The notes: a model not told the origin generated them from the sequence alone. 64,000 bases of DNA from an uncultured archaeon (GCA_964570195.1 CAZMWU010000001.1:7433-71432), one strand, 5' to 3'. Shown: positions 21,026-63,200, counted from the stretch's first letter. Program-made: numbers and translations.

Positions 21026-22636
21026 TTATTGATTATTGTATATAACTTCATAAATTATATTACCGTCGCATCCGCCCTGTTGGATGCACTGTTCCAATGG
21101 AGGTCCATTCTCATAAACTTTTTTGAATATTTCTGGATTATTTTCTAAAAGTCTCACGAAATCAAATGAATAACTTTCTTGTGACGGTTGTTGACTCAGG
21201 CTGAATTTTTGAATAAAAAGATGTGTTATACCATGCATTTCCGACACGTCTCTTATAGATTCAGGATCATTGTTTAGTCGAATATCTGCCCATGCACTAC
21301 TTACGGTTCTTTGACAACTATACGCAGCTCTAGTACCCCAGAACGTCATTAATACAATATTCTCATCAAGATTTTCTTTCACCCAGTTACAAGACTCGAA
21401 AAATAAAGGAGAAAATGTCTTAACCTGTCCCATTACCGCTAACTTGTTAGTAATATTTTGGTAACCGAAAACCAATATTATCATTACAATAACTAAGCCC
21501 AAATATTTCTGATATTTTTGTAAAAGTGTATATAACTCACCCCAATACCGTGAACTTACAATAGCTATTATTGTTGCCCATGGAAGTAGTTGTCTTGCCG
21601 CATCTTCTGACCTTGACCTTATTTGGTACATTGCAATTAACCCAAGAATTAACATTACTATTAAAATCGGGGTAACCTTATCACGTTTCTTAATAAGTAT
21701 AATCAACCCACCAATAAGTCCTATAAGAATAAGCCATATGTTACCATATGTGAAAATTATAAAGTTCTGAAGTCCAAACCTTAGTAAGTCTAGTTCTGTG
21801 CCACCAGCTAAAGTTCTAGTTTCAAATTTATATTTTTCTTCAAAATTTCTGATTTCGCAACCACTTTCATCAAATAGAGGCAATTGTTGGCATTGGGGTG
21901 TCCCATAATAGTACAAATTTCTCAAAAAAAATGGCGCCGAAACAATTAAAACAATCGTACCATAGATTAGATAATTTTTAAGGCTATCACGAAATCTTTT
22001 TTCTTTGAATGAAGTATATAAAAACATTGCAGCTAAGAATGCAAAGATCATTATACCTGCATGTTTAGTTAATATTGCAAGACCAGCAAACAAAGCTGAT
22101 AGCACAAAATATTTTCTATTTTCCTCCTTTACAGCAATCGAAAAAGTTAAAATAAATAGACTAATATAAAGTACGAATAACATTTCATCGAAAGACAAGA
22201 CAGAATATGTTATGAAAGAAGGGAAAGTAATTAATAAAAGAGTTGCAATTAACCCAACTTCCCGATTAAATAATTTTTTTGCCGTTAAAAATACAGAAAT
22301 TCCAATTAAAGAGGCTATAAATGGTGGAAATAGTTTGAAAATAATTTCATGTGTTCCCAGAACGAAAAGGAACCCTGCCTCTAAAATATTAAACAATGGT
22401 GGTCTGGCGTAGTGTGCTTTGTAAACTTTTGTAACTCCGAATGGAACCCACTGAGGATATTCTACATTTCCAGCTATGTACCTAGCTATTTCAGCGTGAA
22501 AACCCTCATCACCAAAAGTTATATTCGTTTTAAGAGAAACATTAGCCTCCAGAATAAAAAGCAATCCGATTAAAATCAACAATAACAAAAACAAATATTG
22601 CGAGGTTAGTCCAATTTTCGTTTTATCACCCATCAA
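21026..22636 (-). CDS. GT-C-fold glycosyltransferase (GT39/ArnT/PMT-like, dolichyl-phosphate-sugar dependent).
   Basis: 536 aa; N-terminal TM helix followed by a loop containing DEGFHAE (a DE-type motif); about 11 TM helices and a C-terminal soluble domain. Confidence 0.55.
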   Translation of the reverse strand: MMGDKTKIGLTSQYLFLLLLILIGLLFILEANVSLKTNITFGDEGFHAEIARYIAGNVEYPQWVPFGVTKVYKAHYARPPLFNILEAGFLFVLGTHEIIFKLFPPFIASLIGISVFLTAKKLFNREVGLIATLLLITFPSFITYSVLSFDEMLFVLYISLFILTFSIAVKEENRKYFVLSALFAGLAILTKHAGIMIFAFLAAMFLYTSFKEKRFRDSLKNYLIYGTIVLIVSAPFFLRNLYYYGTPQCQQLPLFDESGCEIRNFEEKYKFETRTLAGGTELDLLRFGLQNFIIFTYGNIWLILIGLIGGLIILIKKRDKVTPILIVMLILGLIAMYQIRSRSEDAARQLLPWATIIAIVSSRYWGELYTLLQKYQKYLGLVIVMIILVFGYQNITNKLAVMGQVKTFSPLFFESCNWVKENLDENIVLMTFWGTRAAYSCQRTVSSAWADIRLNNDPESIRDVSEMHGITHLFIQKFSLSQQPSQESYSFDFVRLLENNPEIFKKVYENGPPLEQCIQQGGCDGNIIYEVIYNNQ

Positions 22637-35773: not shown

Positions 35774-37912
35774 ATGTTAGAGAATTACAACAATTTGAAA
35801 AGTGTACTTCCCACGATTATCAAAACTATATTAATATTACTGGGTCTAGCTTCTATAATTTTTCTAGGAGTTTATATAAGAAGTAGTACCCTTAGCTCAC
35901 CAACTGTTTTAGATTATGATCCTTGGTATTTTTATCGATATGCAGAAGATATTGTTGAGAATGGATATAAACTATTTAAATGGGACGGATTGACTTACTA
36001 TCCACCAGGACGCCCTACAGATATTTACTTAGGATGGTCTTATACAATTGCAATTTTTTATAAAATATTACATTCAATTTTTGATAACATAACTCTAATG
36101 CAAGTAGCTAAATTAGCACCATTAATAATGGTAGGTATAACACCTGTATTTGCCTTCTTATTAGGTAGATTACTTTCAAACTCCTTAGGAGGGTTATTAA
36201 CAGCTTTATTTTCTGTGATTGCACCCACTTTCATAGGTGTATCTATGGCAGGTTATTCAGATTCTGATGTTGTTACAGTCTTTTACATGATTTTATCCAC
36301 ATTAACGATAATTGCAACAATAAGATACTCAAAAAATATACTGCTCTCAATACCCCTTTACTTTTTATCCGTCATTAGCGTTTTGTTATTTACTTTTAGT
36401 TGGAGTGCAGGTTGGCTACCTTTAATTTTGTTCATGGCATTTATACCTTCATTCATAACCTTCAGGATTTTTGAAGAAGTGATTCATCAAAGAAAATTAA
36501 AAATCAACATTAAAAGTGCACTGGCAGATACGAAACATGTGATAATTCCTCTTCTTATCATATTTCTGATAACAAACATTGTAGGATATTATCTCGGTTT
36601 TAGAACAATGTTCCACTCTTTACTAGGTGGATTAGCATTCGCTGGAATAGGTGGAGAAAGATTAATAGTCAACATTTCTGTTGCAGAACTCCAGACAGTC
36701 AATGTATTCACCAAAGAAGGGTTCCTGGCCATTGCACAACGTGTTGGTATGCTGTCTACAATAATGGCGCTTATAGGGATACCATTATTAGCGATTTATA
36801 AACTTTTTAGAAAGGAAAAAATCAATTTCGTTGAGATATTTTTATTTTTATGGACACTAGTCTCGTTTTACTTTATAATCAAAGGCATAAGGTTCTCACT
36901 ACTGTTCTCCATTTCTGCTTCACTTTCTACGGGTTATGTAATTGGTAATTTATATAACTACCTTAGGCATGTAAATATTTTGATATTTTCTACAATATTT
37001 GCAGTATTGGGCGTTTTTATTTTCGTAGCAATATCGAATTCAATACAAGTTGGATTTGCATCTGGCGGATTGGTAATAGGTCAAAATTGGTATGATGCAT
37101 TAGATTGGCTTAAACAAAATGCTGATAAAGATTCTTTGGTTGCAACGTGGTGGGATCCAGGTCATATCATTACAGGTTATACAGGATTAAAAGTTCACGC
37201 AGATGGGGCGCATTGTGGTGATGCATGTATACCATACAATCATAACACAAGGATAAGAGATATGGGTAGACTGATGACAACAGACAACGAAACAGAATCT
37301 ATAGAAATAATCCAAAAATATACACATTTGACTGATGAACAATGTGATACAATAAGAAAAACGTTTGGAGATATAGTTCCAAAAGACGCGTGTAAAGACG
37401 TCACAGAAACATATATTTTGGCAACCAGCGATTTGATAGGTAAATATTTCTGGATGAGTTGCTTTGGTAGTTTTGATATGAACTTATGGAAAGAAACTAA
37501 AGGTGACGAATGGAGATGCGATGGAAAAAATTTTGCTCAAGTACCGTTTTCTAATTTCGATCGACAAGGTTTACCGATATATTCGCAAGGTGGTCTTACG
37601 ATTACGCTGCTTCAGAACGGTACCGATTTATTAGCTGTACTCAATGCACCTGGGCAAGGCGTCCGTAATAGAGTAGTAAGTGACATAGTGTTTTATCAAA
37701 ATGGTCAGAGAATGCACTCCAAATCCTACTTTAATAATTCGGTAGATGGTATGGTCTGGATAGACCCAAGCTTTAGACTAATTTTATTCATGGATCCTAC
37801 AATAAGGGATTCTGTATTTACTAAAATGTTCTTTTTTGACGGTGAAGGTCTAGAAAACTTTGAGCTTATGTACCAGAACACAGAAGTCAAAATATATAAA
37901 GCGAAAATTTAG
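35774..37912 (+). CDS. aglB: AglB/STT3 oligosaccharyltransferase.
   Basis: 712 aa; N-terminal multi-TM domain with DxD-type loops; C-terminal soluble domain with WWDPGH, a variant of the WWDYG signature. Confidence 0.8.
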   Translation: MLENYNNLKSVLPTIIKTILILLGLASIIFLGVYIRSSTLSSPTVLDYDPWYFYRYAEDIVENGYKLFKWDGLTYYPPGRPTDIYLGWSYTIAIFYKILHSIFDNITLMQVAKLAPLIMVGITPVFAFLLGRLLSNSLGGLLTALFSVIAPTFIGVSMAGYSDSDVVTVFYMILSTLTIIATIRYSKNILLSIPLYFLSVISVLLFTFSWSAGWLPLILFMAFIPSFITFRIFEEVIHQRKLKINIKSALADTKHVIIPLLIIFLITNIVGYYLGFRTMFHSLLGGLAFAGIGGERLIVNISVAELQTVNVFTKEGFLAIAQRVGMLSTIMALIGIPLLAIYKLFRKEKINFVEIFLFLWTLVSFYFIIKGIRFSLLFSISASLSTGYVIGNLYNYLRHVNILIFSTIFAVLGVFIFVAISNSIQVGFASGGLVIGQNWYDALDWLKQNADKDSLVATWWDPGHIITGYTGLKVHADGAHCGDACIPYNHNTRIRDMGRLMTTDNETESIEIIQKYTHLTDEQCDTIRKTFGDIVPKDACKDVTETYILATSDLIGKYFWMSCFGSFDMNLWKETKGDEWRCDGKNFAQVPFSNFDRQGLPIYSQGGLTITLLQNGTDLLAVLNAPGQGVRNRVVSDIVFYQNGQRMHSKSYFNNSVDGMVWIDPSFRLILFMDPTIRDSVFTKMFFFDGEGLENFELMYQNTEVKIYKAKI

Positions 37913-43839: not shown

Positions 43840-43857
43840 TGCTTTTTAACTTTCTAA

Positions 43858-43943
43858 TGCAGGGGGTGAGATTCGAACTCACGAAGGTACTAAACCATCG
43901 ACCCCTGAAGCCGACGCAATTGACCAGACTATGCGACCCCTGC
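43858..43943 (-). tRNA. tRNA-Leu(CAG), class II with a long variable arm. No CCA is encoded.
   Basis: Minus-strand read GCAGGGG-T-CGCA...TGCG-T-CGGCT-TTCAGGG-GTCGA-long variable arm-GTGAG-TTCGAAT-CTCAC-CCCCTGC-A. The 7-bp acceptor stem and the T arm are perfect. Anticodon CAG. Confidence 0.8.
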
Positions 43944-43957
43944 AAATCAATACGGAT

Positions 43958-48491: not shown

Positions 48492-49109
48492 TTACGGTTT
48501 TCTACCAAACAAGAAAACTATCAAAGCAAGCCCCGTCACCAGAAAAATTATCGACAATGTAGTTATGTCCAAACCACCAATCGAGCTAAATAGTTGAGTA
48601 GGTGCTATCTTTAATCCTGGAAATATCGCAGTCCCACCACTTGATATGAAGACACCAACAACTATCAATGCAACGAAAGCCAGAAGCAACCACAATACGT
48701 TGCCCTTAAAAATGTCGTTCCACATATCTGGAAGAATTCCCCCTATCATAGATACAAGAACTATCAAGACAATAAAAGTCAGAATTACTGCTACAGCTCC
48801 TCCAAAAAACTGGGCTAAAAATTGACTGAACGTTATGCCGGCAGGAGTGTAAACCATGATAAATCCAGCAGCCGTCAAAGCTACCACAACAGCAATTCCC
48901 CTTTGTTCACCAAATAATTTTGTTCTAGTCAACAGTCCAAAGAAAACAGCGAAAACTATAATAAAAGGAAGATAAAATTCAAAAACACCAATCTCCTTAA
49001 GTGTGCTTACCACATCTTGAAACCCTTGAGATAATGCAACTGAAGAAAATATCAAAACACTAAAAACAAAACCCAAACCAACTTTAGAAATATCGGCTCT
49101 CATTTTCAA
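48492..49109 (-). CDS. Paralogous polytopic membrane protein, family member 1 of 4.
   Basis: Shared N-terminal motif with its neighbours: EIG[VF]FEFYLPFIIVF...LLTRTKLFGE. Confidence 0.5.
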   Translation of the reverse strand: MKMRADISKVGLGFVFSVLIFSSVALSQGFQDVVSTLKEIGVFEFYLPFIIVFAVFFGLLTRTKLFGEQRGIAVVVALTAAGFIMVYTPAGITFSQFLAQFFGGAVAVILTFIVLIVLVSMIGGILPDMWNDIFKGNVLWLLLAFVALIVVGVFISSGGTAIFPGLKIAPTQLFSSIGGLDITTLSIIFLVTGLALIVFLFGRKP

Positions 49110-49144
49110 CTAACTCATATTTATTTTCCAAAGATTTAAACATG

Positions 49145-49684
49145 TCACTTGGCCGCTCGGACTATCACAGCTATAATTCCCACCAACGCTATCAACGCCA
49201 CCACAGACAATACCAGGTCTGATGAAAAGCTTATTCCTATTCCTTTCGGAAACAAAACTGTAGCAAGCCCACTAGAAACCAAAATCACACCCCCCACAAT
49301 CAGTGCGACAACAATAACTCCCCCCCAGAAAACCGGTGCTTTCATCCTATCACCCAAATTTTTGGCCAAATCTGGCGGGAAGAACATCCCAGCTAAAACC
49401 AATGCTATCAATACAATCAAAGATACGCTGAATCCTTGGACGAAGAATGCCGATAGCTTCGTCTCTATGTCAATCCCTAGAATTATCGGCGCAGCCCATA
49501 CGAACAAGCTGATGACAAAAGCAACAATAGCATTAACAGCGACATTCTTTTCAGGTTCCCCAAACAATTGCGCTCTTCTCAAGCCGCCATAGATTATCGC
49601 TGCCGTCAGAATGAACGGCAATAAGAAATTGAAAAATCCCAGTCCCTGCAGTTTCAATATTGCTATTTCAAAAACTGTAGGCAT
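49145..49684 (-). CDS. Paralogous polytopic membrane protein, family member 2 of 4.
   Basis: LGFFNFLLPFILTAAIIYGGLRRAQLFGE motif. Confidence 0.5.
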   Translation of the reverse strand: MPTVFEIAILKLQGLGFFNFLLPFILTAAIIYGGLRRAQLFGEPEKNVAVNAIVAFVISLFVWAAPIILGIDIETKLSAFFVQGFSVSLIVLIALVLAGMFFPPDLAKNLGDRMKAPVFWGGVIVVALIVGGVILVSSGLATVLFPKGIGISFSSDLVLSVVALIALVGIIAVIVRAAK

Positions 49685-50235
49685 TACTTGACCTCCTTAC
49701 CCATAGACATCGAGACAATCAATAATATGATAAGTATTACAAAAATAGCAACTGTTACTGTCATCAGTTCGGCAGGTACTTTAATTGCTTTGAGCAGACT
49801 TTTGAAAGGATTTCCGATAATTGAGAATAGTCCGGCAGACACAGCAAAAGCTATAGTAGCCCATACAATCCATGCAGCCGGTCCGCCGCCTTTAAAAACA
49901 TCAGGCAATTTTTCAATTATGTTCGGGTAGAAGAAACTAGCTATAAGGAATGCTACCAAAACAACCACTAAAACTATGGCGCCCTGCGTTAAAAATGCTG
50001 TCAGTGCAGGTACTATGCTTGTTCCCAAGATTACCGGTACACCGAAAACAAACATCCCGGCAACAACAGAAATGATCCCATGAATTACAACCGATTCACC
50101 AAGGACCTTTGTTTTCCTCAACACTGCATAAAGTACTGTCGTGAACAATATGAAAGGCAGTAAGAAATTATAGAATCCTATCTCAACTAGCCTCTCAACG
50201 GCAACCTGAAAGATGTTAACCATTCTATCTTTCAA
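49684..50235 (-). CDS. Paralogous polytopic membrane protein, family member 3 of 4.
   Basis: IGFYNFLLPFILFTTVLYAVLRKTKVLGE motif. Confidence 0.5.
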   Translation of the reverse strand: MKDRMVNIFQVAVERLVEIGFYNFLLPFILFTTVLYAVLRKTKVLGESVVIHGIISVVAGMFVFGVPVILGTSIVPALTAFLTQGAIVLVVVLVAFLIASFFYPNIIEKLPDVFKGGGPAAWIVWATIAFAVSAGLFSIIGNPFKSLLKAIKVPAELMTVTVAIFVILIILLIVSMSMGKEVK

Positions 50236-50268
50236 TAATTTGTTTTAGTAAAAATTTAAACATGGTAG

Positions 50269-50778
50269 TTACCTTTTGTACTTAACCCTCAAATAATCTT
50301 CGAGTTGTTTAATTTCATCATCTTTCTGTTTAAGCTGTTTAAGCAAGTCCATTTTTTTTCCTGTGCTTACAAAGACACCGCCAGAATAGTATTTCTTTAG
50401 CAACTTTGCTCTTTCTTCTGTTAAAGATTTTAATTTCTGTTCGTTACCCTGCAAACTTTTAGCTATGTTTGCACCTTTTCCGATTAATGCCCAAAAGAAC
50501 AGGACTGTAATTCCGCCCAAGGAGATAACAGTCCCAGCAACTCCTATCTGAAACAAATAAGATGCAAGGAACTGAAAAATACCACCAGGGTTTATAGCAT
50601 AAATCATTACCGTAAGTCCAAGTGAAACCAGAACGTAAACAAAAGGATTGTCACCTAAAACTTTCGTTTTTTTGATTGCAAACAGGAGCACAGTAAAAAT
50701 TATCAGAAAAGGAATCACGAAAGTTATCAACATGTTCGTTAAATTCGGTGAAAGAAGATTCTCTATGGGAAAAGCCAT
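50269..50778 (-). CDS. Paralogous membrane protein, family member 4 of 4, with a C-terminal coiled-coil tail.
   Basis: ITFVIPFLIIFTVLLFAIKKTKVLGD motif; K/E/L-rich C-terminal heptads. Confidence 0.45.
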   Translation of the reverse strand: MAFPIENLLSPNLTNMLITFVIPFLIIFTVLLFAIKKTKVLGDNPFVYVLVSLGLTVMIYAINPGGIFQFLASYLFQIGVAGTVISLGGITVLFFWALIGKGANIAKSLQGNEQKLKSLTEERAKLLKKYYSGGVFVSTGKKMDLLKQLKQKDDEIKQLEDYLRVKYKR

Positions 50779-50809
50779 ATTATCTAACTATAATTTGCTT
50801 TAGTAAAAC

Positions 50810-51553
50810 TTAAGCGTCTCTCTTCAGTCTCTGCACCAAGTCAGTCAATGCTCTGACAGATTCTATCAATGCCGGTAACGTCTCCTTGAAAGCTTTCTCC
50901 AGGCCGCCAATTCTCGTATCGATATCACCAACACCTTCTTTGAAAATCTCTATCTTGCTTAAAATCTGCGTCTGTTCAGCATTCCTCAAATTCATTATTT
51001 CGCTTATCCTGTCGCCAACTTCCTCAATTCTTCTTTCAATCTCCTGGGCCTTGACAGAGAATTCTGTCATCTTCTGGTTTATCTCACCCATTCTCGCCTG
51101 CACAACATAGTCGACATATTCCTCAGTAGGATAATTCTGTTGGCTACCCTGGTAATATTCTTGAGGCAATGAGGTTTCTGGTAGCTGTGGTGTTTGTTGC
51201 TGTTGCTTTGGTATGATTTCCTCCAATGTAGGCAAAGCAGACTCGCTTCTAGGAGGTTCTGTCGGCATTCCTTCTGTCGGGCTGGTTGCAGCGAACTTCA
51301 AAGCTTGCGTCAATCCATTATCAATCTCTTCAGGCGAGTAGCCTTCTTTCCTCAGAACATCAATTACTTCCACTTCAGAAAAACCTCTCCCAGTCAGATC
51401 CCTCACCCTTTCAACGGGTATAGAGCCTTTTCCTTTAGCCAAAGGATTCTTCAAAAAGGGTAAAGCCATTATTCCACTATAATTAATTCCCTTTTTAATT
51501 AATATAATCCCAAGCTTTGTATACAAACATGAAGACAAGACTGGTAATCGCAA
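50810..51553 (-). CDS. Hypothetical protein with a small N-terminal helical domain, a Pro/Gln-rich linker and a C-terminal coiled coil. The likely start is the internal ATG giving MALPFLK.
   Basis: Low-complexity QQQTPQLPE linker followed by heptad-like E/R/I repeats. Confidence 0.35.
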   Translation of the reverse strand: MRLPVLSSCLYTKLGIILIKKGINYSGIMALPFLKNPLAKGKGSIPVERVRDLTGRGFSEVEVIDVLRKEGYSPEEIDNGLTQALKFAATSPTEGMPTEPPRSESALPTLEEIIPKQQQQTPQLPETSLPQEYYQGSQQNYPTEEYVDYVVQARMGEINQKMTEFSVKAQEIERRIEEVGDRISEIMNLRNAEQTQILSKIEIFKEGVGDIDTRIGGLEKAFKETLPALIESVRALTDLVQRLKRDA

Positions 51554-51939
51554 TAATTTTGTTTTTTGCTATTGTAGCGTCTTATTACTTGTCGCCGAGG
51601 CTAAGCGGCAATTCAAGTGCAGTTGATGAAAATAGAATTGTGGAAGTGGAAATGGCCATAACACACGGTGGCTATATGCCTAATAATATAACAGTAAACC
51701 TAGGAGATAAGGTCAGAATTTTAGCAATAACAACCGACCCTTCACATAGCCATGGAATAACTATCAATGAATTAAAAATTAATAAAGTAGTTTCGAAAAC
51801 ATCACCCTCTGACCCTGAAATAATAGAATTCATTGCAGGTAAATCGGGAATATTTGAAATCTATTGCAAAAGCTGTTCTGACGGTCCAATTGGTTCCCAT
51901 CCATGGTTGAAAGGTACATTGGAAATTTTATCTGATTAA
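51517..51939 (+). CDS. Small membrane-anchored or secreted cupredoxin-like beta-sandwich protein.
   Basis: N-terminal TM helix or signal; NITVNLGDKVRI...H.H...C..C....H pattern typical of the cupredoxin fold; the metal site is non-canonical. Confidence 0.35.
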   Translation: MYTNMKTRLVIAIILFFAIVASYYLSPRLSGNSSAVDENRIVEVEMAITHGGYMPNNITVNLGDKVRILAITTDPSHSHGITINELKINKVVSKTSPSDPEIIEFIAGKSGIFEIYCKSCSDGPIGSHPWLKGTLEILSD

Positions 51940-52364
51940 GTCTTTTTGTTCTTTGGGGTTCTGTAATCAAACATCTTTTCTACTTCGTCTCTTGTTACAA
52001 ACTTGGCAGTAATAGGATTTATCAAGTCTATGAAAGTCTCTATTTGTTTCAATTCCCTTTTCGTCGCAGTCTTGGACAATTCTTTGCTCAATCTTAAAAT
52101 CTCGCCTTCTATGCTCAAGAGCTTCTCCGACACAGACACAATTTTATTGTTTATTTTTTCGAGCGACAGCTTCAGGTCATTTAATTGGGTTAGCGTATTT
52201 TCTTGCAGGGACTCCAATGAACTTTCCAATCTGTCAATTCTCTGCTCTATAATTCTGATTCTTCTTGTATCTTCGTTTATTCTTTTGACGAGCTCTGTTG
52301 TTACTTTTGTAACATCTTCTTCATGCCTCTCGAAAGGCAATGTTGGTAGGGATGGTAAGGCCAT
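51936..52364 (-). CDS. Hypothetical coiled-coil protein (142 aa).
   Basis: Continuous heptad-like pattern; divergent from the pilus ATPase gene. Confidence 0.35.
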   Translation of the reverse strand: MALPSLPTLPFERHEEDVTKVTTELVKRINEDTRRIRIIEQRIDRLESSLESLQENTLTQLNDLKLSLEKINNKIVSVSEKLLSIEGEILRLSKELSKTATKRELKQIETFIDLINPITAKFVTRDEVEKMFDYRTPKNKKT

Positions 52365-55065: not shown

Positions 55066-55344
55066 ATGAAAGCAGTTGCCATACCTTATGTCATCGCACT
55101 TATTCTAGGAATAATGGTTGTTGGCATTCTTGCATACTGGCTTATTAATCAAGCTGGTAAAACAACAGCCCAAGGAGCTAGTGCAGAATGCCAAGGAAAG
55201 ATATTTTCATACTGCTTAGCATGGGATGCCCAAGGGAAGAAGTGTAGCGATGGCCAACCATCTTCTTTTGATTGGGGAAATAAATGTACTAAACCCAGTG
55301 ATTTCAAGATAGATAATTGTAAGTCCCTAGGCATTTGTACTTGA
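55066..55344 (+). CDS. Pilin-like protein with a class-III signal peptide and a Cys-rich domain (paralog 2).
   Basis: MKA|VAIPYVIALILGIMVVG N-terminus; 6 Cys. Confidence 0.55.
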   Translation: MKAVAIPYVIALILGIMVVGILAYWLINQAGKTTAQGASAECQGKIFSYCLAWDAQGKKCSDGQPSSFDWGNKCTKPSDFKIDNCKSLGICT

Positions 55345-55395: not shown

Positions 55396-55707
55396 ATGAG
55401 AAAAGCAGTTGCCATACCTTATGTCATAGCCCTGATTATCGGAGTCGTGGTAGTCGCAGTTCTAGCTTACTGGTTTATTTCTTCTGCAGGTAAAGGTAGC
55501 AGCATCGGGACAGAGGCAGAGTGCACAGCAAGAAAGGTCGAATACTGTACCACACAAGTTACTGACGTTTGGAATAAATTTAAACAAGTCTGCGGCAATG
55601 ACGAATGGTCAAAAGCCGGATCATGCTACAATTTTTGCTCAAGCATAGTTCCGAGTTGGAAATCTACAAATAGTCAAGGTGGATCCTGTGCCCAATCCAC
55701 TCCTTAA
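55396..55707 (+). CDS. Pilin-like protein with a class-III signal peptide and a Cys-rich domain (paralog 3).
   Basis: MRKA|VAIPYVIALIIGVVVVA N-terminus; 7 Cys. The 20 nt up to and including the start codon, gaaatcaaataataattatg, are identical to those of paralog 1. Confidence 0.55.
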   Translation: MRKAVAIPYVIALIIGVVVVAVLAYWFISSAGKGSSIGTEAECTARKVEYCTTQVTDVWNKFKQVCGNDEWSKAGSCYNFCSSIVPSWKSTNSQGGSCAQSTP

Positions 55708-55773: not shown

Positions 55774-57738
55774 ATGCCAATAATTTCCCGCGAGTATGAG
55801 AAATTCCTTAGAGAGGAACAGTTAGCCAAGAAACTCACTTTCTACGAAAGATCATGCCGGTTATCAGAAAAAATTCTACCACTGTCACCACCATTTAAAG
55901 GTCTCAAAGAAAAATATAAAGAATCAATTGAATTCTCACACCTCAAGATAACACCAAAAGGTGCATTTTCCCTCTCGCTTATAACAACATTGTTAATTTT
56001 CATCGTTTCTCTAATAGCATTAGTAATATTGAATTCGTTCACTTCCTCTTCACTTATCCTCTCATCTATCCTGTCTTTAATAACATTTTACTTTTTTGTT
56101 GTCTATCCCAATCACCACGCAACTGTATTCAGAATCAATGCATCATCAGAAATGGTACTTGCAACAATCTACATGAGCATCTCAATGCATATATCACCTA
56201 ATTTGGAAAATGCGATTAAATTTGCTTCAAATAATTTGAAGGGGTCACTGTCAGTAGATTTGCGTGAATTATTGTGGGATGTGTACACTAGGAAATATGA
56301 TAAAATTGAGGATGCTTTAGATTCCTTTATTGTAAAATGGAAAAAAGACAATAAAGAGTTCGCAGAGTCGTTGTATCTTATTAAAAATTCCGGTGCAGAA
56401 TCTCAAGAAAAACGAGAAAGATTTTTGGATGAAGCAGTCTCTGTTATGTTAGATGGCACTAAAGAAAGAATGCGATTATACTCGCGCCAGCTAAAAGAAC
56501 CGGTCACAATTTTAAACGCCCTAGGGATTCTCTTGCCTATAATAGGCTTGGTTTTCTTTCCAATAATCAGTCTATTCTTGCCGGAATTAATCCAGCCTAT
56601 TTTTCTTGTAGTGGGTTATGATTTCTTTCTTCCTCTAATAGTCTTCCTTTTCATGAATAGTTATCTGGAAAAAAGACCCTACAGTTTACATCAGCCAGAT
56701 TTGAGTAAACATCCCGATTTTTCTACTGTCAAATTTTATGAAAAACCATATACTATACCACTGTTAGTTTCCTTGCCGTTGATTGCAATAGGCTTGGTTA
56801 ATATAATAGGAAAAAAGGACCTTTTTAGTTTCGGTCTACTTGTATACTCGATGTTAATCACATTAGGTTTGTTTATCGGGATTGCTACTTATTCTGCACT
56901 GTCTGTCAAAAGGAAGCTGAAAATAAGAAAAGAAATTGCAAGCATAGAAAGCGAATTCGCTGAGACATTATTTCAGTTGGGTAGCATGATACTGCGAGGA
57001 ACACCATTAGAAACAGCTTTAAGAAGAGTTAAAGAAGACATTAAGAATCTGAAAATTGCGCAATTCTTCGATAAAATATTATACAATATAGAAACATTTG
57101 GTTTGACATTCGAAAATGCTGTCTTCGACAAGACATACGGCGCAATAAATTATTATCCGTCTAATATAGTCGAATCTGCGATGCATGTAATAGTCGAGAC
57201 TTCAAAAAAAGGAATGCAAAGCGCATCCAAATCAATGATAATCATCTCCAAATACCTGAAAGATATGCATGAGGTAGAAGAAGATTTAAAAAATATGTTG
57301 GAAGAAGTGACATCAACAATGAATATACAGAGTATTCTCCTTGCTCCTTTGAGTGCAGGCGTTGTAGTCACTATTGCTGTTATAATGACGAGGCTTTTAG
57401 TTAATCTGGGGGAGACTTTAACTTCCGTTTATTCAGAGGTAGGTTCGGCTCTAGGCCCTGCTGGTGATATAGGTACAGGAGTCATATCGTCAATAGTCAA
57501 TTTAAGTGCGATCATACCAATTCACGGTTTTCAATTAATTGTTGGCGTATATATTGTTGAGATTGTGACCATTATCGCGATTACACTGAGCACAATTACA
57601 AACGGTGACGAGGGTTTAATGAAAAGGTTGACGATATCAAAACATCTCACTTACAGTTGTATCGTGTATTTCATAACTTTGTTATCCACATACTTTTTAT
57701 TCACCTCGGTTATTTCAATAGAGAAGTTAATAATCTGA
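55774..57738 (+). CDS. FlaJ/TadC/PilC-like polytopic platform protein of a type IV pilus-like system.
   Basis: 654 aa; two blocks of TM helices separated by cytoplasmic helical domains; located between the ATPase and the pilin-like genes. Confidence 0.55.
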   Translation: MPIISREYEKFLREEQLAKKLTFYERSCRLSEKILPLSPPFKGLKEKYKESIEFSHLKITPKGAFSLSLITTLLIFIVSLIALVILNSFTSSSLILSSILSLITFYFFVVYPNHHATVFRINASSEMVLATIYMSISMHISPNLENAIKFASNNLKGSLSVDLRELLWDVYTRKYDKIEDALDSFIVKWKKDNKEFAESLYLIKNSGAESQEKRERFLDEAVSVMLDGTKERMRLYSRQLKEPVTILNALGILLPIIGLVFFPIISLFLPELIQPIFLVVGYDFFLPLIVFLFMNSYLEKRPYSLHQPDLSKHPDFSTVKFYEKPYTIPLLVSLPLIAIGLVNIIGKKDLFSFGLLVYSMLITLGLFIGIATYSALSVKRKLKIRKEIASIESEFAETLFQLGSMILRGTPLETALRRVKEDIKNLKIAQFFDKILYNIETFGLTFENAVFDKTYGAINYYPSNIVESAMHVIVETSKKGMQSASKSMIIISKYLKDMHEVEEDLKNMLEEVTSTMNIQSILLAPLSAGVVVTIAVIMTRLLVNLGETLTSVYSEVGSALGPAGDIGTGVISSIVNLSAIIPIHGFQLIVGVYIVEIVTIIAITLSTITNGDEGLMKRLTISKHLTYSCIVYFITLLSTYFLFTSVISIEKLII

Positions 57739-57754
57739 AAATCAAAATTAGATT

Positions 57755-57868
57755 ATGAGGAAAGCTGTTATTTCTGTTTCTTTATGGTTTATTGTCACGC
57801 TGATCATGGTTTTAATTATTATAATGGCGGCTTTTACCATAGTGCAGAAAGGAATGTTGGTTAAATGA
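57755..57868 (+). CDS. Unannotated 37-aa micro-ORF encoding a pilin-like single-TM peptide (MRKAVISVSLWFIVTLIMVLIIIMAAFTIVQKGMLVK). It is below the length cutoff of the ORF track.
   Basis: The N-terminus MRKA|V matches the neighbouring class-III signal paralogs; ATGA overlap with the next gene. Confidence 0.3.
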   Translation: MRKAVISVSLWFIVTLIMVLIIIMAAFTIVQKGMLVK

Positions 57869-58224
57869 GAAAAGCAATCGGAATGGCATTGCAAATTTTA
57901 ATCGGGGTTATATTCATGATACTTGGTCTGATTGTTGTCTGGTCTTTTACTGAAAAGGTATCCGGATTTTCCCTTGGACTTCTTCTAGGCACAACAGCTA
58001 AAAATGCTTACTGTGGAATAGCAGGTAGTCCTGTCAAAGGAGGTATTTCGGGAGGTGCACTCGGTTTGGCTGTAGGCGGAGGTATATGTGCGGCAGGGGT
58101 GGTAGGTGCTTTCTTTACAGGGGGAATATCTCTCTCTGCTTGTGTCTTAGGTGCTAAAATAGGAGCTGGGATTGCTGTTGGGGCTGGGATAGCGGGTGCC
58201 GCATACTCGGCAACTGCATGCTAG
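57865..58224 (+). CDS. Small Gly-zipper membrane protein with a class-III-like N-terminus.
   Basis: MRKA|IGMALQILIGVIFMILG followed by GxxxG/AxxxG repeats (GGISGGALGLAVGGGICAAGVVGAFF). Confidence 0.4.
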   Translation: MRKAIGMALQILIGVIFMILGLIVVWSFTEKVSGFSLGLLLGTTAKNAYCGIAGSPVKGGISGGALGLAVGGGICAAGVVGAFFTGGISLSACVLGAKIGAGIAVGAGIAGAAYSATAC

Positions 58225-58264
58225 TAATCAAGTTATTTATCGTCTTTTAACCTAATTACAATCA

Positions 58265-59248
58265 ATGTCCAAAGCCATGGCTATTGAAGGTGTGGGAAAG
58301 ATTTTCATTATGATAGCTGTTCTTGTTGTCGGTATTGCCTTTCTGGTGAAAGCTCTAGGGATTGACCCTTTCGGATGGCTAGAAAAGAAGTTTGAGGGCA
58401 TCGATGTGCCAGAAACAGGCAAGGCCTTGCATGTTAGAATGGATGTGGATGCAAAACTTAAAGATGTATTTTCGTTCCATTTATTATCCGATAACGAAAT
58501 GCGGAAACACCATACAGATGAAGAGGGTAGTAGCTCTTATTATAGCCTATATTTTCAAATCGAATCAGATAAAGTAAAAAATCCGCTTGTCCTTGGAAAT
58601 TGTGTATTGTTAGTAACCGAGGAAGAAAAATCATCTTTTGGTATTGCTGGTGGAGCCGACAAATCTTATGTCTACTACATCAAATCCGGCACAATGATTC
58701 AAGATGATGACAAGCCCTGCCAATTTTTGGGACAATGCCTCTCTGACAAAAACTGGGATTATAAAAAATTAGTCGACAAGGGATATGGCTGTATTTCTGA
58801 TCAGGTGAGAGACGAAAATCCCAGTTGCGATAAATGTAAAAAAGCTGCAGCTCCATCTTACGATTGTATAGGTCCCTTTAGTGTTGTTAACTGTGCCGGT
58901 CAGGTTCTTCCAGGTCCCTTTGGTGATTGGCAAAAGAGTCCACCATGTGACAGCGATCACACGGTGATAAAAAATTTCGAATTCTCTGACGATATATTAA
59001 TATCCGATAGATGTGCAGAAGATGATCCAAGTGAATGCAATTTGCTAAATTATAGAGAAGTCGAAGGAAAAAGCATATTTGAAAGTAAAAGATTTATTGG
59101 CAGCAAAGTTAAATATGGCATCATCTGTGGCAATGACGGGTACTGGCATACCTGTAAACAAAACATCGAAGGAGAAGTTCCAACCCCAGATGGCACATAT
59201 ACATGTGACAGCAAGTTAGGTGGTGCAGTTTTCTATTGGAAAAAATAA
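58265..59248 (+). CDS. Secreted or membrane-anchored Cys-rich protein (327 aa) with a class-III-like N-terminus.
   Basis: MSKA|MAIEGVGKIFIMIAVLVVGIAF; about 20 Cys, including CDKCKK and CxxxC-type pairs. Confidence 0.45.
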   Translation: MSKAMAIEGVGKIFIMIAVLVVGIAFLVKALGIDPFGWLEKKFEGIDVPETGKALHVRMDVDAKLKDVFSFHLLSDNEMRKHHTDEEGSSSYYSLYFQIESDKVKNPLVLGNCVLLVTEEEKSSFGIAGGADKSYVYYIKSGTMIQDDDKPCQFLGQCLSDKNWDYKKLVDKGYGCISDQVRDENPSCDKCKKAAAPSYDCIGPFSVVNCAGQVLPGPFGDWQKSPPCDSDHTVIKNFEFSDDILISDRCAEDDPSECNLLNYREVEGKSIFESKRFIGSKVKYGIICGNDGYWHTCKQNIEGEVPTPDGTYTCDSKLGGAVFYWKK

Positions 59249-59260
59249 TCTGTGAAATAA

Positions 59261-61054
59261 ATGAGAATGCCTAGGATACCCCTGCATTTGGCATTGGCTT
59301 TAGCGCTTGGCACAGGAATAGTAGGTTATTCACTACCTAATCATTCAAGAGTTTACCAATTCTTAAGAGATACACCATCAACAGCCCGAGAATATGGTAG
59401 AGAACTGTGGGAAGCACTACCTTTCACAGAAAAAGAAGCATATCCTATAACCTCACCAGTTAGCTATACATCAACTAAGGAAGAAAAATTTACATCAATC
59501 GCACGCAGGTATTCTGGGTCATCTCCTCTGGCTATGACAAAAGATAAGAATTCAGGAGTGTTATTGCCAGGGCAAACAATAACAATAAACCCAATCACAA
59601 CTGTGATTCACGTACCTCCTGAAATATGGACGATGGCATACGGCGACCCCAGAAATGTTCCGTATATTAGAAAGATAGTGAAACGAGGCGACGAACCTGA
59701 TAAAATTTCTGTAAAAATAGAAGATGTGATTACAGGAGATTTGGGGTTGGGGCGTCCTGAAGATGTAGCCGTTGTTAGCATAATTGGACAGTTAGGTGAG
59801 AGTAGAAGCCCCTTATTATTAATCGGACGAAATGGGAAGGTGGTTTCCGTACCTTTTAGCAGGGGAGAGTATGGCAGTGGATATGTTGGGGCAATAATAA
59901 ATACAACGGATGTAACTGGCGACAATAGTCCAGAAATTATTGTTCAAGAAAGGGACATGGATTCTAATCCATGGATTCACCCAAGATTATTGCATATTTT
60001 TCGACGAAATGAAAAAGGAGATTTTCAAAACCACCCCACTTATGCAGCAGGCATTACATTAATAGAGGATGCAGACGGAAACAACATCCCTGATATATTT
60101 TCTGCTTGGTGGATACCTGCACCAGAGTTTGGTGTTAAAATCAACAGAGGACTTACATACGACCCCAAAACACTAAACATTTTAAGAACTGAATGGGTTC
60201 CAAACCCACATCCAGGAGGTTTTCTGAGCCTGACGCGAGATGAGTATAACGCACCTGAAAACATAAAAGTAGCACTGGCTACAGATTTTTTAATCAATAA
60301 CCCCAACTATCCTGAAATTTCCCGCGAGATTGAGCAGGGGCTGATAACAACATCTTCTCAATTATCTGAGATACTCAAATCATCACAACGTTCTCTTATA
60401 GATAGGATAGGATCTAATGCTTATACGCAAGCTGCAACTTTTGCAGGTAGACTAGAAATTAACAAAGGAGAAATTCTAACTTCATTGCTTTCTCCAAATC
60501 CCGAGCAAGCTATTGAGGTCGCAGAGCAGGTTCTAAGGACGTCAGACCGCCATATTATCGATTTGGCTCTTAGGGAAGCGGGGGAGGATCTTTATGTAGT
60601 CGACCTAGAAACAGATTTGGCACGACCTCTTTGGGAATATCTATCAGATGTTAGTGCGGAACGGGGTGAATTGAATGTCAGGGTTGGCGTGGAACCCCTT
60701 GCAGCATATCTTTTAACAGCATACTTGAACAATGTTGTGCCATGGGCAATCGATCAGCCGGCAGCCCTCCTTCTAACACGGGATATAGCATTGATGCCAG
60801 GAAACAGTTATGTAACAGTCAGATTAAGGCCTGACGAGAGAGGCGATTTAAAGTTATCCGGAGGATTTGAAACCGGTGAAAACGTAAGGAGATTAAATAA
60901 TGCAGTGAACTCTTATGTAATGGATAAACAACCTGAACTCGATAGATTTGAAGAGAAAATTAGGTCGGGTACTGGCATAAGGAGCATGCTGCAGACATGG
61001 GGAGAAATAGGGTTGGATACAATCGAACAACTAAGAAGACGGTTAAAAGAATAA
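59261..61054 (+). CDS. Large secreted hypothetical protein (597 aa).
   Basis: N-terminal signal-like MRMPRIPLHLALALALGTGIVG; Arg/Gly/Pro-richer composition than its neighbours. Confidence 0.4.
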   Translation: MRMPRIPLHLALALALGTGIVGYSLPNHSRVYQFLRDTPSTAREYGRELWEALPFTEKEAYPITSPVSYTSTKEEKFTSIARRYSGSSPLAMTKDKNSGVLLPGQTITINPITTVIHVPPEIWTMAYGDPRNVPYIRKIVKRGDEPDKISVKIEDVITGDLGLGRPEDVAVVSIIGQLGESRSPLLLIGRNGKVVSVPFSRGEYGSGYVGAIINTTDVTGDNSPEIIVQERDMDSNPWIHPRLLHIFRRNEKGDFQNHPTYAAGITLIEDADGNNIPDIFSAWWIPAPEFGVKINRGLTYDPKTLNILRTEWVPNPHPGGFLSLTRDEYNAPENIKVALATDFLINNPNYPEISREIEQGLITTSSQLSEILKSSQRSLIDRIGSNAYTQAATFAGRLEINKGEILTSLLSPNPEQAIEVAEQVLRTSDRHIIDLALREAGEDLYVVDLETDLARPLWEYLSDVSAERGELNVRVGVEPLAAYLLTAYLNNVVPWAIDQPAALLLTRDIALMPGNSYVTVRLRPDERGDLKLSGGFETGENVRRLNNAVNSYVMDKQPELDRFEEKIRSGTGIRSMLQTWGEIGLDTIEQLRRRLKE

Positions 61055-61102: not shown

Positions 61103-61426
61103 GTGAAATTAATGAAAGCTGTCGCGGTTCCTTATATCATAGCTATTCTTCTTGGTGTTGGTGTCATCGGGTTAGTAGGTTATTGGTTATTTGTTTCCGG
61201 AGGTCAGTTCGGCGGCGGAGCCGCATCTCAACAATGCAGGACAGATTTTCTACAAACCTGCCAGAGCTGGGCGGCTGGTGGATATTTAGCAGATAACCCT
61301 GCTGATAATGGTGTTTTTAAGCACGCAGATGATAATGTTTGCATGAAGCAAGTGACAGGTAAAACCGACATGGACGATGCCACTAAAGCCATATACAGGT
61401 CTTCCTGTACAGTGGCTGGTGCTTAA
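61103..61426 (+). CDS. Pilin-like protein with a class-III signal peptide and a Cys-containing domain (paralog 4).
   Basis: MKLMKA|VAVPYIIAILLGVGVIG N-terminus. Confidence 0.5.
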   Translation: MKLMKAVAVPYIIAILLGVGVIGLVGYWLFVSGGQFGGGAASQQCRTDFLQTCQSWAAGGYLADNPADNGVFKHADDNVCMKQVTGKTDMDDATKAIYRSSCTVAGA

Positions 61427-61451
61427 TTTCTATATTTTCTAAATCTATTAT

Positions 61452-61742
61452 ATGTCCAAAGCCGTTGCAACGCAAGCTGTTTTCCTGGTGGGCGTCATCG
61501 CCATTCTATTTTTCTTCATAACCGCTATTTTCTTCGGCTGGATTAAAGGAACTAAAATAGTTACCACTCAAGCTACATGTGTAGTGAAGCAAAGGAGCTA
61601 TTGCAGTGAATGGTCTGTAGCAGGAAAGGAGCCTGACTGGTGGGGAGAAAGGGAGCCTAAGAATTGTGAGAGCGCGGACTTTCAAATAACCAAACCTAGT
61701 TGTAACGACTGTAAGAAGATATACTCTGCTATGAGATGCTAA
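61452..61742 (+). CDS. Pilin-like protein with a class-III signal peptide and a Cys-rich domain (paralog 5).
   Basis: MSKA|VATQAVFLVGVIAILFFF N-terminus; 7 Cys. Confidence 0.5.
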   Translation: MSKAVATQAVFLVGVIAILFFFITAIFFGWIKGTKIVTTQATCVVKQRSYCSEWSVAGKEPDWWGEREPKNCESADFQITKPSCNDCKKIYSAMRC

Positions 61743-61769
61743 TAATTTATCAGAAAACAAAATAATCTT

Positions 61770-62141
61770 ATGTTGAAAGGCTCCGCCGCCACAAACGCCC
61801 TTACCATTGTAGGTGTGGGACTTGTGAGCGTAATAATGTTTGCCCAAGTCCCTGACATGGTAAAAGATATAAGATTGGTTTTGTCGAAAGATTCTGTCAT
61901 AGCAAAATCGGCAGAGATAGCAGATTTGTTAACTCGCACAGCATCAGTGCCAGGGGACATCAAAATTACCCATAAACTATCCGATGAAGTTTCTTACACC
62001 ATTTCGATTAAAAACGGTTATGTAAATATCAGCACTGAAAACGATTGGGCGGTGTCAAAGACATTTTCGAATGTGGAATTCGAGTCAGAAAATGTAAAGT
62101 CACTCCTGATAACAAAAACTAGTATCATAAAGGTTGAATGA
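61770..62141 (+). CDS. Pilin-like protein (class-III-like N-terminus, no Cys-rich domain).
   Basis: MLKG|SAATNALTIVGVGLVSVIMF N-terminus. Confidence 0.4.
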   Translation: MLKGSAATNALTIVGVGLVSVIMFAQVPDMVKDIRLVLSKDSVIAKSAEIADLLTRTASVPGDIKITHKLSDEVSYTISIKNGYVNISTENDWAVSKTFSNVEFESENVKSLLITKTSIIKVE

Positions 62142-62769
62142 TATGAAAAAAGGGCAACAATCGGCAGAGATATTATTCTCAGTTACCATTGCTGTGCTTC
62201 TTGCAGGAATCCTTTTACCAGCGATTCCTCTTGGTCAAGCAACTAAAATAGCTCCAGAAGTGCAAGCCAAGGAATTTGAAAACAAGGCGATTATTTTAGC
62301 AAATTCCTTTTTGGACAATCCGGATTTAATTTATTCTGATTCTTACGGTTCTTATCATGGGATGTTCGATACAACAAATTTCGAAAATATTTTTTATGAA
62401 AGCGATTCTGATTCAGCCTTGTACACATGCAAGCCAAATCTAAGCAATTGCAAACTACCGACTTATCCAGAGACTTTCGCATTGGTGATAGTTGTTGATA
62501 TAGAAAACGATAATGGGTGGTTCACCGGTACACACAGGTTGACTGGTTCAGAGTCACAAGTTACCAATATAATTTCATGTTTCCAAAATAGAGTAACCAT
62601 AAATTATCCCGACTTGTTCAAGGCTGGCTCTTATACAGCCGAAGTTTTAGAATTAGACAATTGTAATTTACACAGATATTCGCATCTTAATTTAGTTTTT
62701 CCTGTCTCACTCAGATATTCAGACGGCAGGATTAACAAGGGCGTACTAAAAGTTCTGGTGGTCGAATGA
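62134..62769 (+). CDS. Pilin-like protein with a bacterial-type-IV-pilin-like N-terminus.
   Basis: MNDMKKG|QQSAEILFSVTIAVLLAGIL, with Gly at -1 and Glu at +5. Confidence 0.45.
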   Translation: MNDMKKGQQSAEILFSVTIAVLLAGILLPAIPLGQATKIAPEVQAKEFENKAIILANSFLDNPDLIYSDSYGSYHGMFDTTNFENIFYESDSDSALYTCKPNLSNCKLPTYPETFALVIVVDIENDNGWFTGTHRLTGSESQVTNIISCFQNRVTINYPDLFKAGSYTAEVLELDNCNLHRYSHLNLVFPVSLRYSDGRINKGVLKVLVVE

Positions 62770-63200
62770 AATCGCAATCCATACTTGACATACCTTTGAT
62801 GGGAACAATAGCAATAATAATTATTCCATTGTCTATAATACTTCCCCCCACCATAATTAAAATGACACTCGACAAAGAAATTGTATATACCTTCGAATAT
62901 GAAAAGACACAGTATACTTTACTTGCATTGCTGTCGTCTACCTATAATGGCAATCATTTATACGAAATAATCGCGAACAATATCGACAACCCCGAGAATT
63001 TAGAATTTTTAAAAGATGATATTAACAAACTTGTAGAATCCAAGTGTTATACCATCCAAGTCGGCGACGGAAACGAGTTCGCTCCTATAGTCGAGAGCGG
63101 CAGTTGCAACAAAAAATACACTTTCACTACAATAATTACACTTCCCTATAGCCCTGATTCTAAATCACGTGTAAAATTGTTGAGGATTGATGTAGGATGA
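62766..63200 (+). CDS. Small protein with an N-terminal TM helix (possible minor pilin).
   Basis: MKSQSILDIPLMGTIAIIIIPLSIIL N-terminus; ATGA-coupled in the pilin operon. Confidence 0.3.
   Translation: MKSQSILDIPLMGTIAIIIIPLSIILPPTIIKMTLDKEIVYTFEYEKTQYTLLALLSSTYNGNHLYEIIANNIDNPENLEFLKDDINKLVESKCYTIQVGDGNEFAPIVESGSCNKKYTFTTIITLPYSPDSKSRVKLLRIDVG

Follow-up and report, generated by a model that had tools for sequence, protein, structure and literature searches.

Immediately downstream of the membrane platform gene in a type IV pilus (T4P) locus of an uncultured archaeon lies an open reading frame (ORF) of only 37 codons, termed here the micro-ORF, which is almost certainly a real protein-coding gene under purifying selection, judging from its conservation in related genomes. 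Its product belongs to a previously undescribed family of small proteins, 34 to 73 amino acids (aa) in length, that is found only in Aenigmarchaeota-type T4P loci, and it may be, with a probability of roughly 0.5, a low-abundance headless minor pilin or pseudopilin located with the platform protein at the membrane-embedded base of the pilus. The DNA analyzed, referred to as the window, is a stretch of 64,000 nucleotides (nt) (GCA_964570195.1 CAZMWU010000001.1:7433-71432; positions are counted from its first letter) and represents a piece of the chromosome of a DPANN archaeon (Aenigmarchaeota). Its T4P locus contains a FlaI/TadA-like ATPase, a TadC-like platform protein, and 10 or more proteins whose N-termini are of the class III type, with a hydrophobic helix after a short basic leader that ends in K-G/A; these proteins are encoded by ORFs near the ATPase and platform genes.

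The micro-ORF begins with the ATG at 57755, 16 nt past the stop codon of the 654-aa platform gene, comprises 37 sense codons (MRKAVISVSLWFIVTLIMVLIIIMAAFTIVQKGMLVK), and ends with the TGA at 57866 to 57868, whereas the ATG of the following 119-aa ORF occupies 57865 to 57867, so that an ATGA is common to the end of one frame and the start of the other. The original prediction had described this frame and its overlapping stop, together with an MRKA start like that of the flanking paralogs, and both the coordinates and the sequence held; the MRKA start recurs in the neighboring ORFs at 55396 (MRKAVAIPYV...) and 57865 (MRKAIGMAL...). The product can be divided into MRKA (57755-57766), a hydrophobic helix from V5 to V30 (57767-57844), and the tail QKGMLVK (57845-57865), leaving seven residues past the helix; an AlphaFold 2 (AF2) model predicted a single continuous helix spanning residues 2 to 36 (pLDDT, 87). 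The frame had also been called unannotated, which is correct as far as it can be checked: an exact-product look-up returned no gene on record for the 37-aa product, and a Logan contig that is identical over this stretch (L002) has no call in the interval. Orthologues in other metagenome-assembled genomes (MAGs) have been called “hypothetical protein” at the same position by the NCBI and JGI pipelines.

By itself, the micro-ORF is not beyond chance, and its significance comes from its conservation in relatives. In this base composition, 37 stop-free codons arise with a probability of ~0.067, and of 84 off-frame ATGs in the four big neighboring genes, 5 open at least 37 codons. A set of 60 loci from GTDB species representatives was gathered with a platform profile, and a locus was considered usable when its contig continued past the platform gene. 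An ORF of 35 to 59 aa with one hydrophobic helix followed the platform gene in all 26 usable loci with a platform identity of at least 45%, and it started at most 13 nt ahead of the platform stop or 29 nt past it. The micro-ORF was also present in two deeper loci (L055 and L058; platform identity, 33%), in nine metagenome loci, and in six further loci where it had been called independently by JGI gene callers; four Halobacterial loci (L059 to L062; platform identity, ~22%) were too distant and too GC rich to inform on micro-ORFs. The 742-kb chromosome CP070804 lacks the micro-ORF, which is present on the 786- to 791-kb contigs from which L007 and L011 come. L069, the closest relative to carry a Gly-rich second gene as well, keeps a 37-aa ORF (MRKGVINAGLWIVIMIIIILFVLMAAFKLVGSVLKGG). 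In L064 and L071, the micro-ORF is intact even though a VapBC-like toxin-antitoxin (TA) pair has been inserted ahead of it, after the platform gene. The inserted genes are an AbrB/SpoVT-like and PIN (VapBC-type) pair (L064:3268-4015 and L071:260-1000), and in both loci a second copy of the final ~20 nt of the platform gene, with the 16-nt spacer, precedes the micro-ORF, an arrangement that resembles a target-site or junction duplication.

Among the 10 closest loci, the proportion of differences was 0.82 at synonymous sites (pS), which are thus saturated, versus 0.35 at nonsynonymous sites (pN), and the pooled pN/pS over 18 closer pairs was 0.32. Despite this saturated synonymous divergence, the frame is open in all of the 40-plus related loci; it is neither absent nor interrupted in these relatives, and absence or interruption was what the original prediction had named as decisive against it. 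These results bear directly on the reading that no functional protein is made and that the frame is either a chance ORF or an upstream ORF that acts solely through its translation, by setting the expression of the following gene. Such a reading might draw on the modest improbability (~6 to 7%) of 37 codons in this composition, on the missing product record for this genome, and on the ATGA overlap, which would permit coupling. It is nevertheless extremely improbable, given a frame that stays open in so many loci with a pN/pS of ~0.3, the retention of motif, helix, and length class, the 10- to 45-nt gap that separates the micro-ORF from the next gene in many loci (the spacing ranges from -4 to +45 nt), and the finding that Rfam searches of the whole window and of positions 57600 to 58300 matched no RNA family at the micro-ORF site.

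A family profile built from the window copy and database members was searched against 1.84 billion representative proteins. All of the 43 matches (clusters) at E values below 1e-3 were 34 to 73 aa long, which indicates a dedicated micro-protein family rather than the N-terminus of something larger. The window peptide had no Pfam match at an E value of 0.1 or less, and the profile had no match among PDB sequences even at an E value of 10. When 51 family members were compared with Pfam at E values up to 10, only scattered single-transmembrane (TM) noise was obtained (including weak matches to Flp1_like, SecE, and viral TM proteins); these weak matches, mostly to unrelated single-TM families, were rejected as evidence of membership.

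The most conserved feature of the family is a putative processing site for an archaeal prepilin peptidase of the PibD/FlaK type. In archaea, the prepilin peptidase site has G, A, or S at position -1 and a charged residue at -2 and stands ahead of the hydrophobic H-domain (PMC4371748). A [KR][GAS] pair precedes a hydrophobic helix of 18 to 25 residues in 81 of 82 distinct members (site residues over the 82 members: K, 78; G, 68; A, 11; and S, 2), and these are the two best-conserved residues of the family, in agreement with the earlier description of a class-III-type site followed by one TM helix. An unanchored alignment (A4) shows an invariant K and a G conserved to at least 90%; in a larger alignment (A5), K alone reaches the 90% mark. 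The sole member without the site (L029:3046-3206) has an out-of-frame ATGATGAAGG directly upstream, which suggests a frameshift or an assembly error at the true start. In the window copy, M-R-K-A↓V (the arrow marks the predicted site), Ala and Lys occupy -1 and -2, and the hydrophobic stretch V5 to V30 starts straight after K-A; most relatives have D-V-x-R-Y first and begin their hydrophobic run at +6. The full consensus after the site in most members is D-V-[DEN]-R-[YF]-phi-phi-W, an 18-residue hydrophobic run, and [FY]-Y-x-G. The leader ranges from 2 to more than 14 residues; such free variation is expected if the leader is the discarded part. The predicted mature length is 28 to 44 aa (median, 40). 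The longer forms of the family end in an amphipathic tail, which the window clade (36 to 38 aa) has lost; in the window copy and in L069, one residue and the aromatic residue at +5 have disappeared as well. The globular, usually beta-rich head domain of archaeal pilins is lacking: the helix of the window copy is followed by seven residues only, and none of the 43 representative matches exceeds 73 aa.

The genomic position of the micro-ORF is as constant as its site. It is directly downstream of the platform gene in the loci (split from it by the TA pair in L064 and L071) and in every case has the TadC-like platform gene on one side and a gene for a two-cysteine mini-pilin of 58 to 75 aa on the other. 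The distances to the neighbors are ATGA overlaps or gaps of 0 to 25 nt; in 13 loci the micro-ORF start overlaps the platform stop in an ATGA, mostly after G-rich stretches, and a 16-nt gap separates the two genes in the window, L003, L004, L005, L007, and L010. From these junctions, the micro-ORF is predicted to be translationally coupled to its neighbors, and the coupling to the platform gene, by ATGA overlap or 16-nt spacer, would imply a low, platform-like level of expression. In sequence, the micro-ORF, the second gene, and the third gene are 33 to 46% identical where the platform keeps 68 to 85%, and the micro-ORF helix alone is 35 to 46% identical over the same comparisons. The micro-ORF thus evolves at the rate of the downstream pilin-like genes, while the ATPase and platform genes evolve more slowly. 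A single frameshifted gene comprising both the micro-ORF and the 119-aa ORF was considered and rejected, because each has its own start, K-G/A site, and helix and because the spacing between them varies.

Alignment with its orthologues identified the 119-aa protein as the window version of the 58- to 75-aa mini-pilin family, whose members have a K-G/A site followed by a TM helix and an amphipathic segment, as well as a conserved G[LF]K..[FIL]C and a Cys at the C-terminus. Between the family-conserved Cys50 and Cys119, the window protein carries a Gly-rich insertion (approximately residues 51 to 118; nt 58015-58218) that is present only in the window, L008, and L069, with sequences that differ substantially among the three. 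The protein contains 26 Gly residues, 8 GxxxG motifs, and 28 [GAS]xxx[GAS] motifs. An AF2 single-sequence model placed helices at residues 2 to 49, 57 to 85, and 90 to 117 (pLDDT, 66), suggesting with moderate confidence a long helix at the N-terminus and a helical hairpin after it. A homology search with the protein found itself alone, and there was no Pfam match at an E value of 0.1 or less; the L008 orthologue gave a subthreshold match to Gly-zipper_Omp (PF13488) (E value, 0.0036; 17.6 bits versus a 25-bit cutoff). The “Gly-zipper” label of the original prediction therefore describes the GxxxG repeats correctly but is not backed by a hidden Markov model (HMM) match, and the Gly-rich part is lineage specific in a family of 58- to 75-aa two-cysteine proteins. 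The protein is best described, from its alignment, as a diverged two-cysteine minimal pilin-like protein with a Gly-rich insertion.

The N-terminus of this neighbor is also the closest profile match of the micro-protein family. In hhalign comparisons, the family matched the mini-pilin N-terminus with probabilities of 73 to 89% (P values of 3e-5 to 2.5e-6) and the canonical pilin N-terminus with a probability of 28%, the reversed control giving 4.8%; TM composition inflates such scores. An origin of the micro-ORF and the mini-pilin gene as tandem duplicates is plausible. In L072 (5136-5551), two consecutive small genes (71 and 67 aa) rather than one follow the micro-ORF, and the mini-pilin gene appears to be prone to tandem duplication.

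A processed pilin-type protein is favored because the site is the best-conserved part of the family, the leader is variable, the rate of evolution is pilin-like, and a class-III neighbor is the best profile match. The micro-peptide would insert through its helix with the N-terminus inside, and the prepilin peptidase of the genome would remove the leader (MRKA in the window copy). There would remain a headless helix of ~33 residues; in most relatives, where a short amphipathic tail is retained, the remainder would be ~40 residues. This helix may sit at the pilus base with the platform protein and, for example, prime, seat, or terminate the stack of subunits. Very small minor pilins can be essential, as is the case for MMP1283 of Methanococcus maripaludis, which belongs to a group of proteins of 54 to 63 aa when mature (PMC3875500).

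Several observations weigh against a processed minor pilin. Most members have four or five polar or charged residues (D-V-[DEN]-R-Y) between the putative site and the hydrophobic run, a stretch that is unusual for archaeal pilins and that could be a cytoplasmic juxtamembrane contact motif of an uncleaved protein; the window copy has lost this motif and one residue. A headless mature peptide of 28 to 44 aa is shorter than any characterized pilin, and the similarity to the canonical pilin N-terminus is weak. Furthermore, no prepilin peptidase gene was found within the 64-kb window by TM count, GxGD motif, or Pfam; the candidates that were considered are actually an LPG-synthase-like protein, a GT4 protein, and an STT3 protein.

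These points lend themselves to a different reading, in which the product is an uncleaved bitopic accessory subunit that binds the platform, and perhaps the ATPase through its K-G-D-V-E-R-Y stretch, and stabilizes or tunes the platform. Co-translation with the platform gene at a platform-like stoichiometry would follow from the ATGA overlap in 13 loci and the fixed 16-nt spacer of the window clade. The charged residues conserved between the KG pair and the helix would be an oddity in a pilin, whose N-terminus is buried, and a single helix with no exposed domain and the lack of a peptidase gene within the window would likewise fit. On the other hand, a generic N-in anchor needs positive charge but not a near-invariant Gly or Ala after Lys, and the micro-ORF evolves two to three times faster than the platform, at a pilin-like rate. 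In addition, after the TA insertion the micro-ORF has stayed with the mini-pilin gene and not with the platform gene, and the best profile match is to the N-terminus of the neighboring class-III protein. An uncleaved subunit is the main alternative to the processed minor pilin, possible but less likely.

The original prediction had proposed that the micro-ORF encodes the major filament subunit or a membrane-active peptide. For the first of these roles, other genes in the locus fit better. The window encodes four paralogous Cys-rich pilins of ~100 aa that start K[GA]↓VAIPYVIALILG...GYW, and their H-domain, K[GA]↓VA[IV]PY[IV]IA[IL]xLG...GYW, is nearly invariant among 27 pilins from 15 loci with one to four copies each; similar pilins were present in further loci inspected. 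Conservation of the H-domain is a mark of the major pilins of Haloferax volcanii (PMC4371748), and the ~100-aa pilins are, on this pattern, likely the better candidates for the major subunit. The presence of these pilins, the coupling of the micro-ORF to the platform gene, and the lack of a surface-forming part make the micro-ORF an unlikely major subunit. Once cleaved, the hydrophobic helix of 33 residues could fill the core of a filament but would be unable to form its surface.

A related proposal is that the micro-ORF product is a Flp-like major pilin that forms the shaft, alone or with the mini-pilin, with the ~100-aa proteins serving as decorations or belonging to a second fiber. The long-form relatives, at ~40 aa when mature and with a helix, GG, and an amphipathic tail, do resemble short Epd/Tad pilins, and 4 of 51 members had weak matches to Flp1_like (PF16982; best E value, 0.0019). 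None of these matches reached the Pfam threshold (the one shown individually scored 11.2 bits against a 33.5-bit cutoff), and there was no PDB sequence match. The processing motif of Flp pilins is G↓XXXXEY. This motif is absent from the window copy (A↓VISVSLW) and out of register in the family consensus, and the window clade, having lost its tail, would be left with 33 residues that are nearly all hydrophobic. Coupling to a low-copy machine gene, the fast-evolving helix, and the one to four copies of canonical invariant-H-domain pilins in the locus also argue against this role, which is improbable. The broader idea of a Flp-like headless pilin that builds, or is essential for priming, a filament together with the ~60-aa mini-pilin, which would make it the smallest type IV filament subunit, is unlikely, although somewhat less so.

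Nothing was found to support the suggestion of a membrane-active peptide. A holin-, toxin-, or bacteriocin-like effector, either exported or aimed at the host cell of an episymbiont, would be consistent with a small and very hydrophobic product, and DPANN archaea live attached to hosts. Against such an effector stand the single fixed position inside a T4P operon, the absence of any gene pattern for immunity, processing, or export, the lack of similarity to known toxin families, and the clustering of the conserved residues at a prepilin-like N-terminal site; its probability is very low.

The features of the locus are listed in Table 1.

Table 1. Features of the T4P locus and the adjacent divergent module in the window (↓, predicted processing site)
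Feature	Position(s)	Strand	Remarks
Divergent module: coiled-coil protein (142 aa), 247-aa protein, and four paralogous polytopic membrane proteins (169-205 aa)	48492..52364	-	
FlaI/TadA-like secretion ATPase, 746 aa	52410..54650	+	Pfam T2SSE, E 6e-17
Three paralogous canonical pilins, ~100 aa	54669-55034, 55066-55344, 55396-55707	+	M(R/M)K[GA]↓VAIPYVIALI(L/I)G...; Cys-rich heads
TadC/FlaJ-like membrane platform protein, 654 aa	55774..57738	+	Weak T2SSF match, E 0.0032
A-rich spacer, 16 nt, from platform stop to micro-ORF start	57739..57754	+	Length and sequence kept in closest relatives
Micro-ORF, 37 aa	57755..57868	+	Putative class III signal, helix, short tail
Second small class-III-type protein, 119 aa	57865..58224	+	MRKA, TM helix, amphipathic segment, Cys50 and Cys119
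Large Cys-rich class-III-type protein, 327 aa (MSKA↓MAIEG...)	58265..59248	+	
597-aa protein	59261..61054	+	N-terminal hydrophobic segment; no family match
Fourth canonical pilin	61103-61426	+	Assigned by N-terminus
Four more class-III-type proteins	61452-61742, 61770-62141, 62134-62769, 62766-63200	+	Assigned by N-termini; no Pfam match

The ATPase also matched the NCBIfam models FlaI (2.6e-38) and TadA (1.6e-35), both matches being under the equivalog cutoffs. Homologues of the platform protein are named TadB or bear PF00482, and the platform protein itself is 100% identical to a protein of an NCBI Candidatus Aenigmarchaeota MAG. Apart from the ATPase and the platform protein, the proteins of the locus matched nothing in Pfam or NCBIfam. 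The product of the third gene after the platform (58265-59248) is a candidate tip adhesin or minor pilin; its orthologues range from 291 to 826 aa, and the protein in that position in L072 bears a Laminin_G_3 domain. The four class-III-type proteins encoded at 61452 to 63200 are presumed to be minor pilins, and the series of pilin and class-III genes from 61103 to 63200 recurs in L013, L016, L028, and L030.

The divergent module is found upstream of the ATPase gene in the same four loci and in L058, L072, and L075. In relatives it encodes a coiled-coil protein of ~140 aa, a protein of 230 to 270 aa with a conserved N-terminus (GRGYVPTDRVREL..GFSE..ID.LR.EGFSPDEID), and two to four paralogous polytopic proteins of 170 to 205 aa. 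None of the module proteins has a Pfam match, and they are possibly further unrecognized components of the machine.

In deeper Aenigmarchaeota clades (L032 to L038, L049, and L057; L040 to L056), the place behind the platform gene is taken by other genes, which encode either a protein of 142 to 165 aa that starts M..DQPRFLFWLV or a class-III-type giant of 836 to 1153 aa. The DQPRFLFW start is locally reminiscent of the D-V-D-R-F-I-V-W of the micro-protein family; homology to the 142- to 165-aa protein was considered but found no support, as the full-library profile search gave nothing longer than 73 aa.

The remainder of the window is ordinary chromosome, with genes for PolB, RPA, RadA, and ribosomal proteins, a glycosylation cluster, and a tRNA-Leu gene. 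The surface-glycosylation cluster (2430-37912) includes two STT3/AglB-like genes (21026-22636 on the minus strand and 35774-37912 on the plus strand) and genes for a GT4 (AglH-like) protein, a flippase-like Polysacc_synt/MatE protein, PMT_2 proteins, and an LPG_synthase_TM protein. The tRNA-Leu(CAG) gene (88 nt; 43857-43944, minus strand) was found by ARAGORN. It was missed by the whole-window Rfam run at gathering thresholds, although it scored 46.6 bits (cutoff, 29) when a 200-nt stretch was searched alone, and the miss is an artifact of the filter of the tool.

Among known proteins, the archaeal minor pilins (e.g., MMP0528, MMP0903, and MMP1283 of M. maripaludis; PMC3875500 and PMC4858521) resemble the micro-ORF product in being encoded in a T4P locus with ATPase and platform genes. 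Their hydrophobic helix likewise comes directly after a short charged leader that ends in K-G/A, and they occur as several genes per locus and evolve fast. The smallest characterized minor pilins are 54 to 63 aa when mature, compared with 34 to 59 aa as encoded in the loci and 28 to 44 aa as predicted mature length in the micro-ORF family. Unlike these minor pilins, the micro-ORF family is headless, has four or five polar residues after the site in most members, and occupies a fixed position after the platform gene. In addition, the +1 Gln and +5 Glu of EppA substrates are absent from the family.

The Flp/Fap pilins of bacterial Tad pili (PF04964 and PF16982) are in the size class of the long-form relatives and have a similar layout, namely, a leader ending in G, a few polar residues including an aromatic one, a hydrophobic helix, and a short tail. 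Their register is G↓x-x-x-x-E-Y, as opposed to G↓D-V-[DEN]-R-[YF] in the micro-ORF family, where the aromatic residue is at +5 and there is no invariant Glu. In contrast to Flp/Fap genes, the micro-ORF is not a first or stand-alone gene, the family has no HMM match at threshold, and the window copy lacks both motif and tail. It has been proposed that Tad pili derive from an archaeal Epd-like system with short major pilins (PMC6668835), and the major pilin of M. maripaludis is 62 aa when mature (PMC3875500).

If the micro-ORF product were uncleaved, its closest analogues would be of another kind, small proteins of <50 aa with one helix that are coupled to a partner gene and routinely missed by annotation. 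KdpF, CydX, and AcrZ are small single-TM accessory subunits encoded in the operons of membrane machines. These proteins have no conserved K-G/A prepilin-type site, unlike the micro-ORF family.

The T4P loci of DPANN archaea have been described, in the passages of Makarova et al. (PMC6393860) retrieved by term search, as rich in “dark matter” proteins that bear signals and were inferred to be pilins. On that description, these loci are of the same type as the window locus, with a recognizable ATPase and TadC protein and many unrecognizable signal-bearing proteins. Those passages mention neither genes of fewer than 60 aa nor the micro-ORF family, and compared with them, the micro-protein family with its fixed position is newly defined here for window-type loci.

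DPANN archaea rely on cell-cell contact, and most of what their T4P loci encode is “dark matter”, to which the present results add a micro-protein family that is mostly missed by standard annotation, having no Pfam model, no call in this genome, and only sporadic calls elsewhere. With a peptide of 37 to 40 aa, a two-residue site, and one partner gene, the micro-ORF is a concrete and cheap target. If the product were a Flp-like headless filament subunit, it would be an archaeal counterpart of the minimal Flp pilins and a new minimum in the size of T4P subunits, and if it is not processed, it would be the first candidate for a small accessory subunit of an archaeal TadC/FlaJ-type platform. If it is processed, as favored here, it would set a new lower size limit for pilin-like proteins and would provide a simple model for the role of a bare alpha1-N helix in a type IV machine, whether in priming, seating, or capping.

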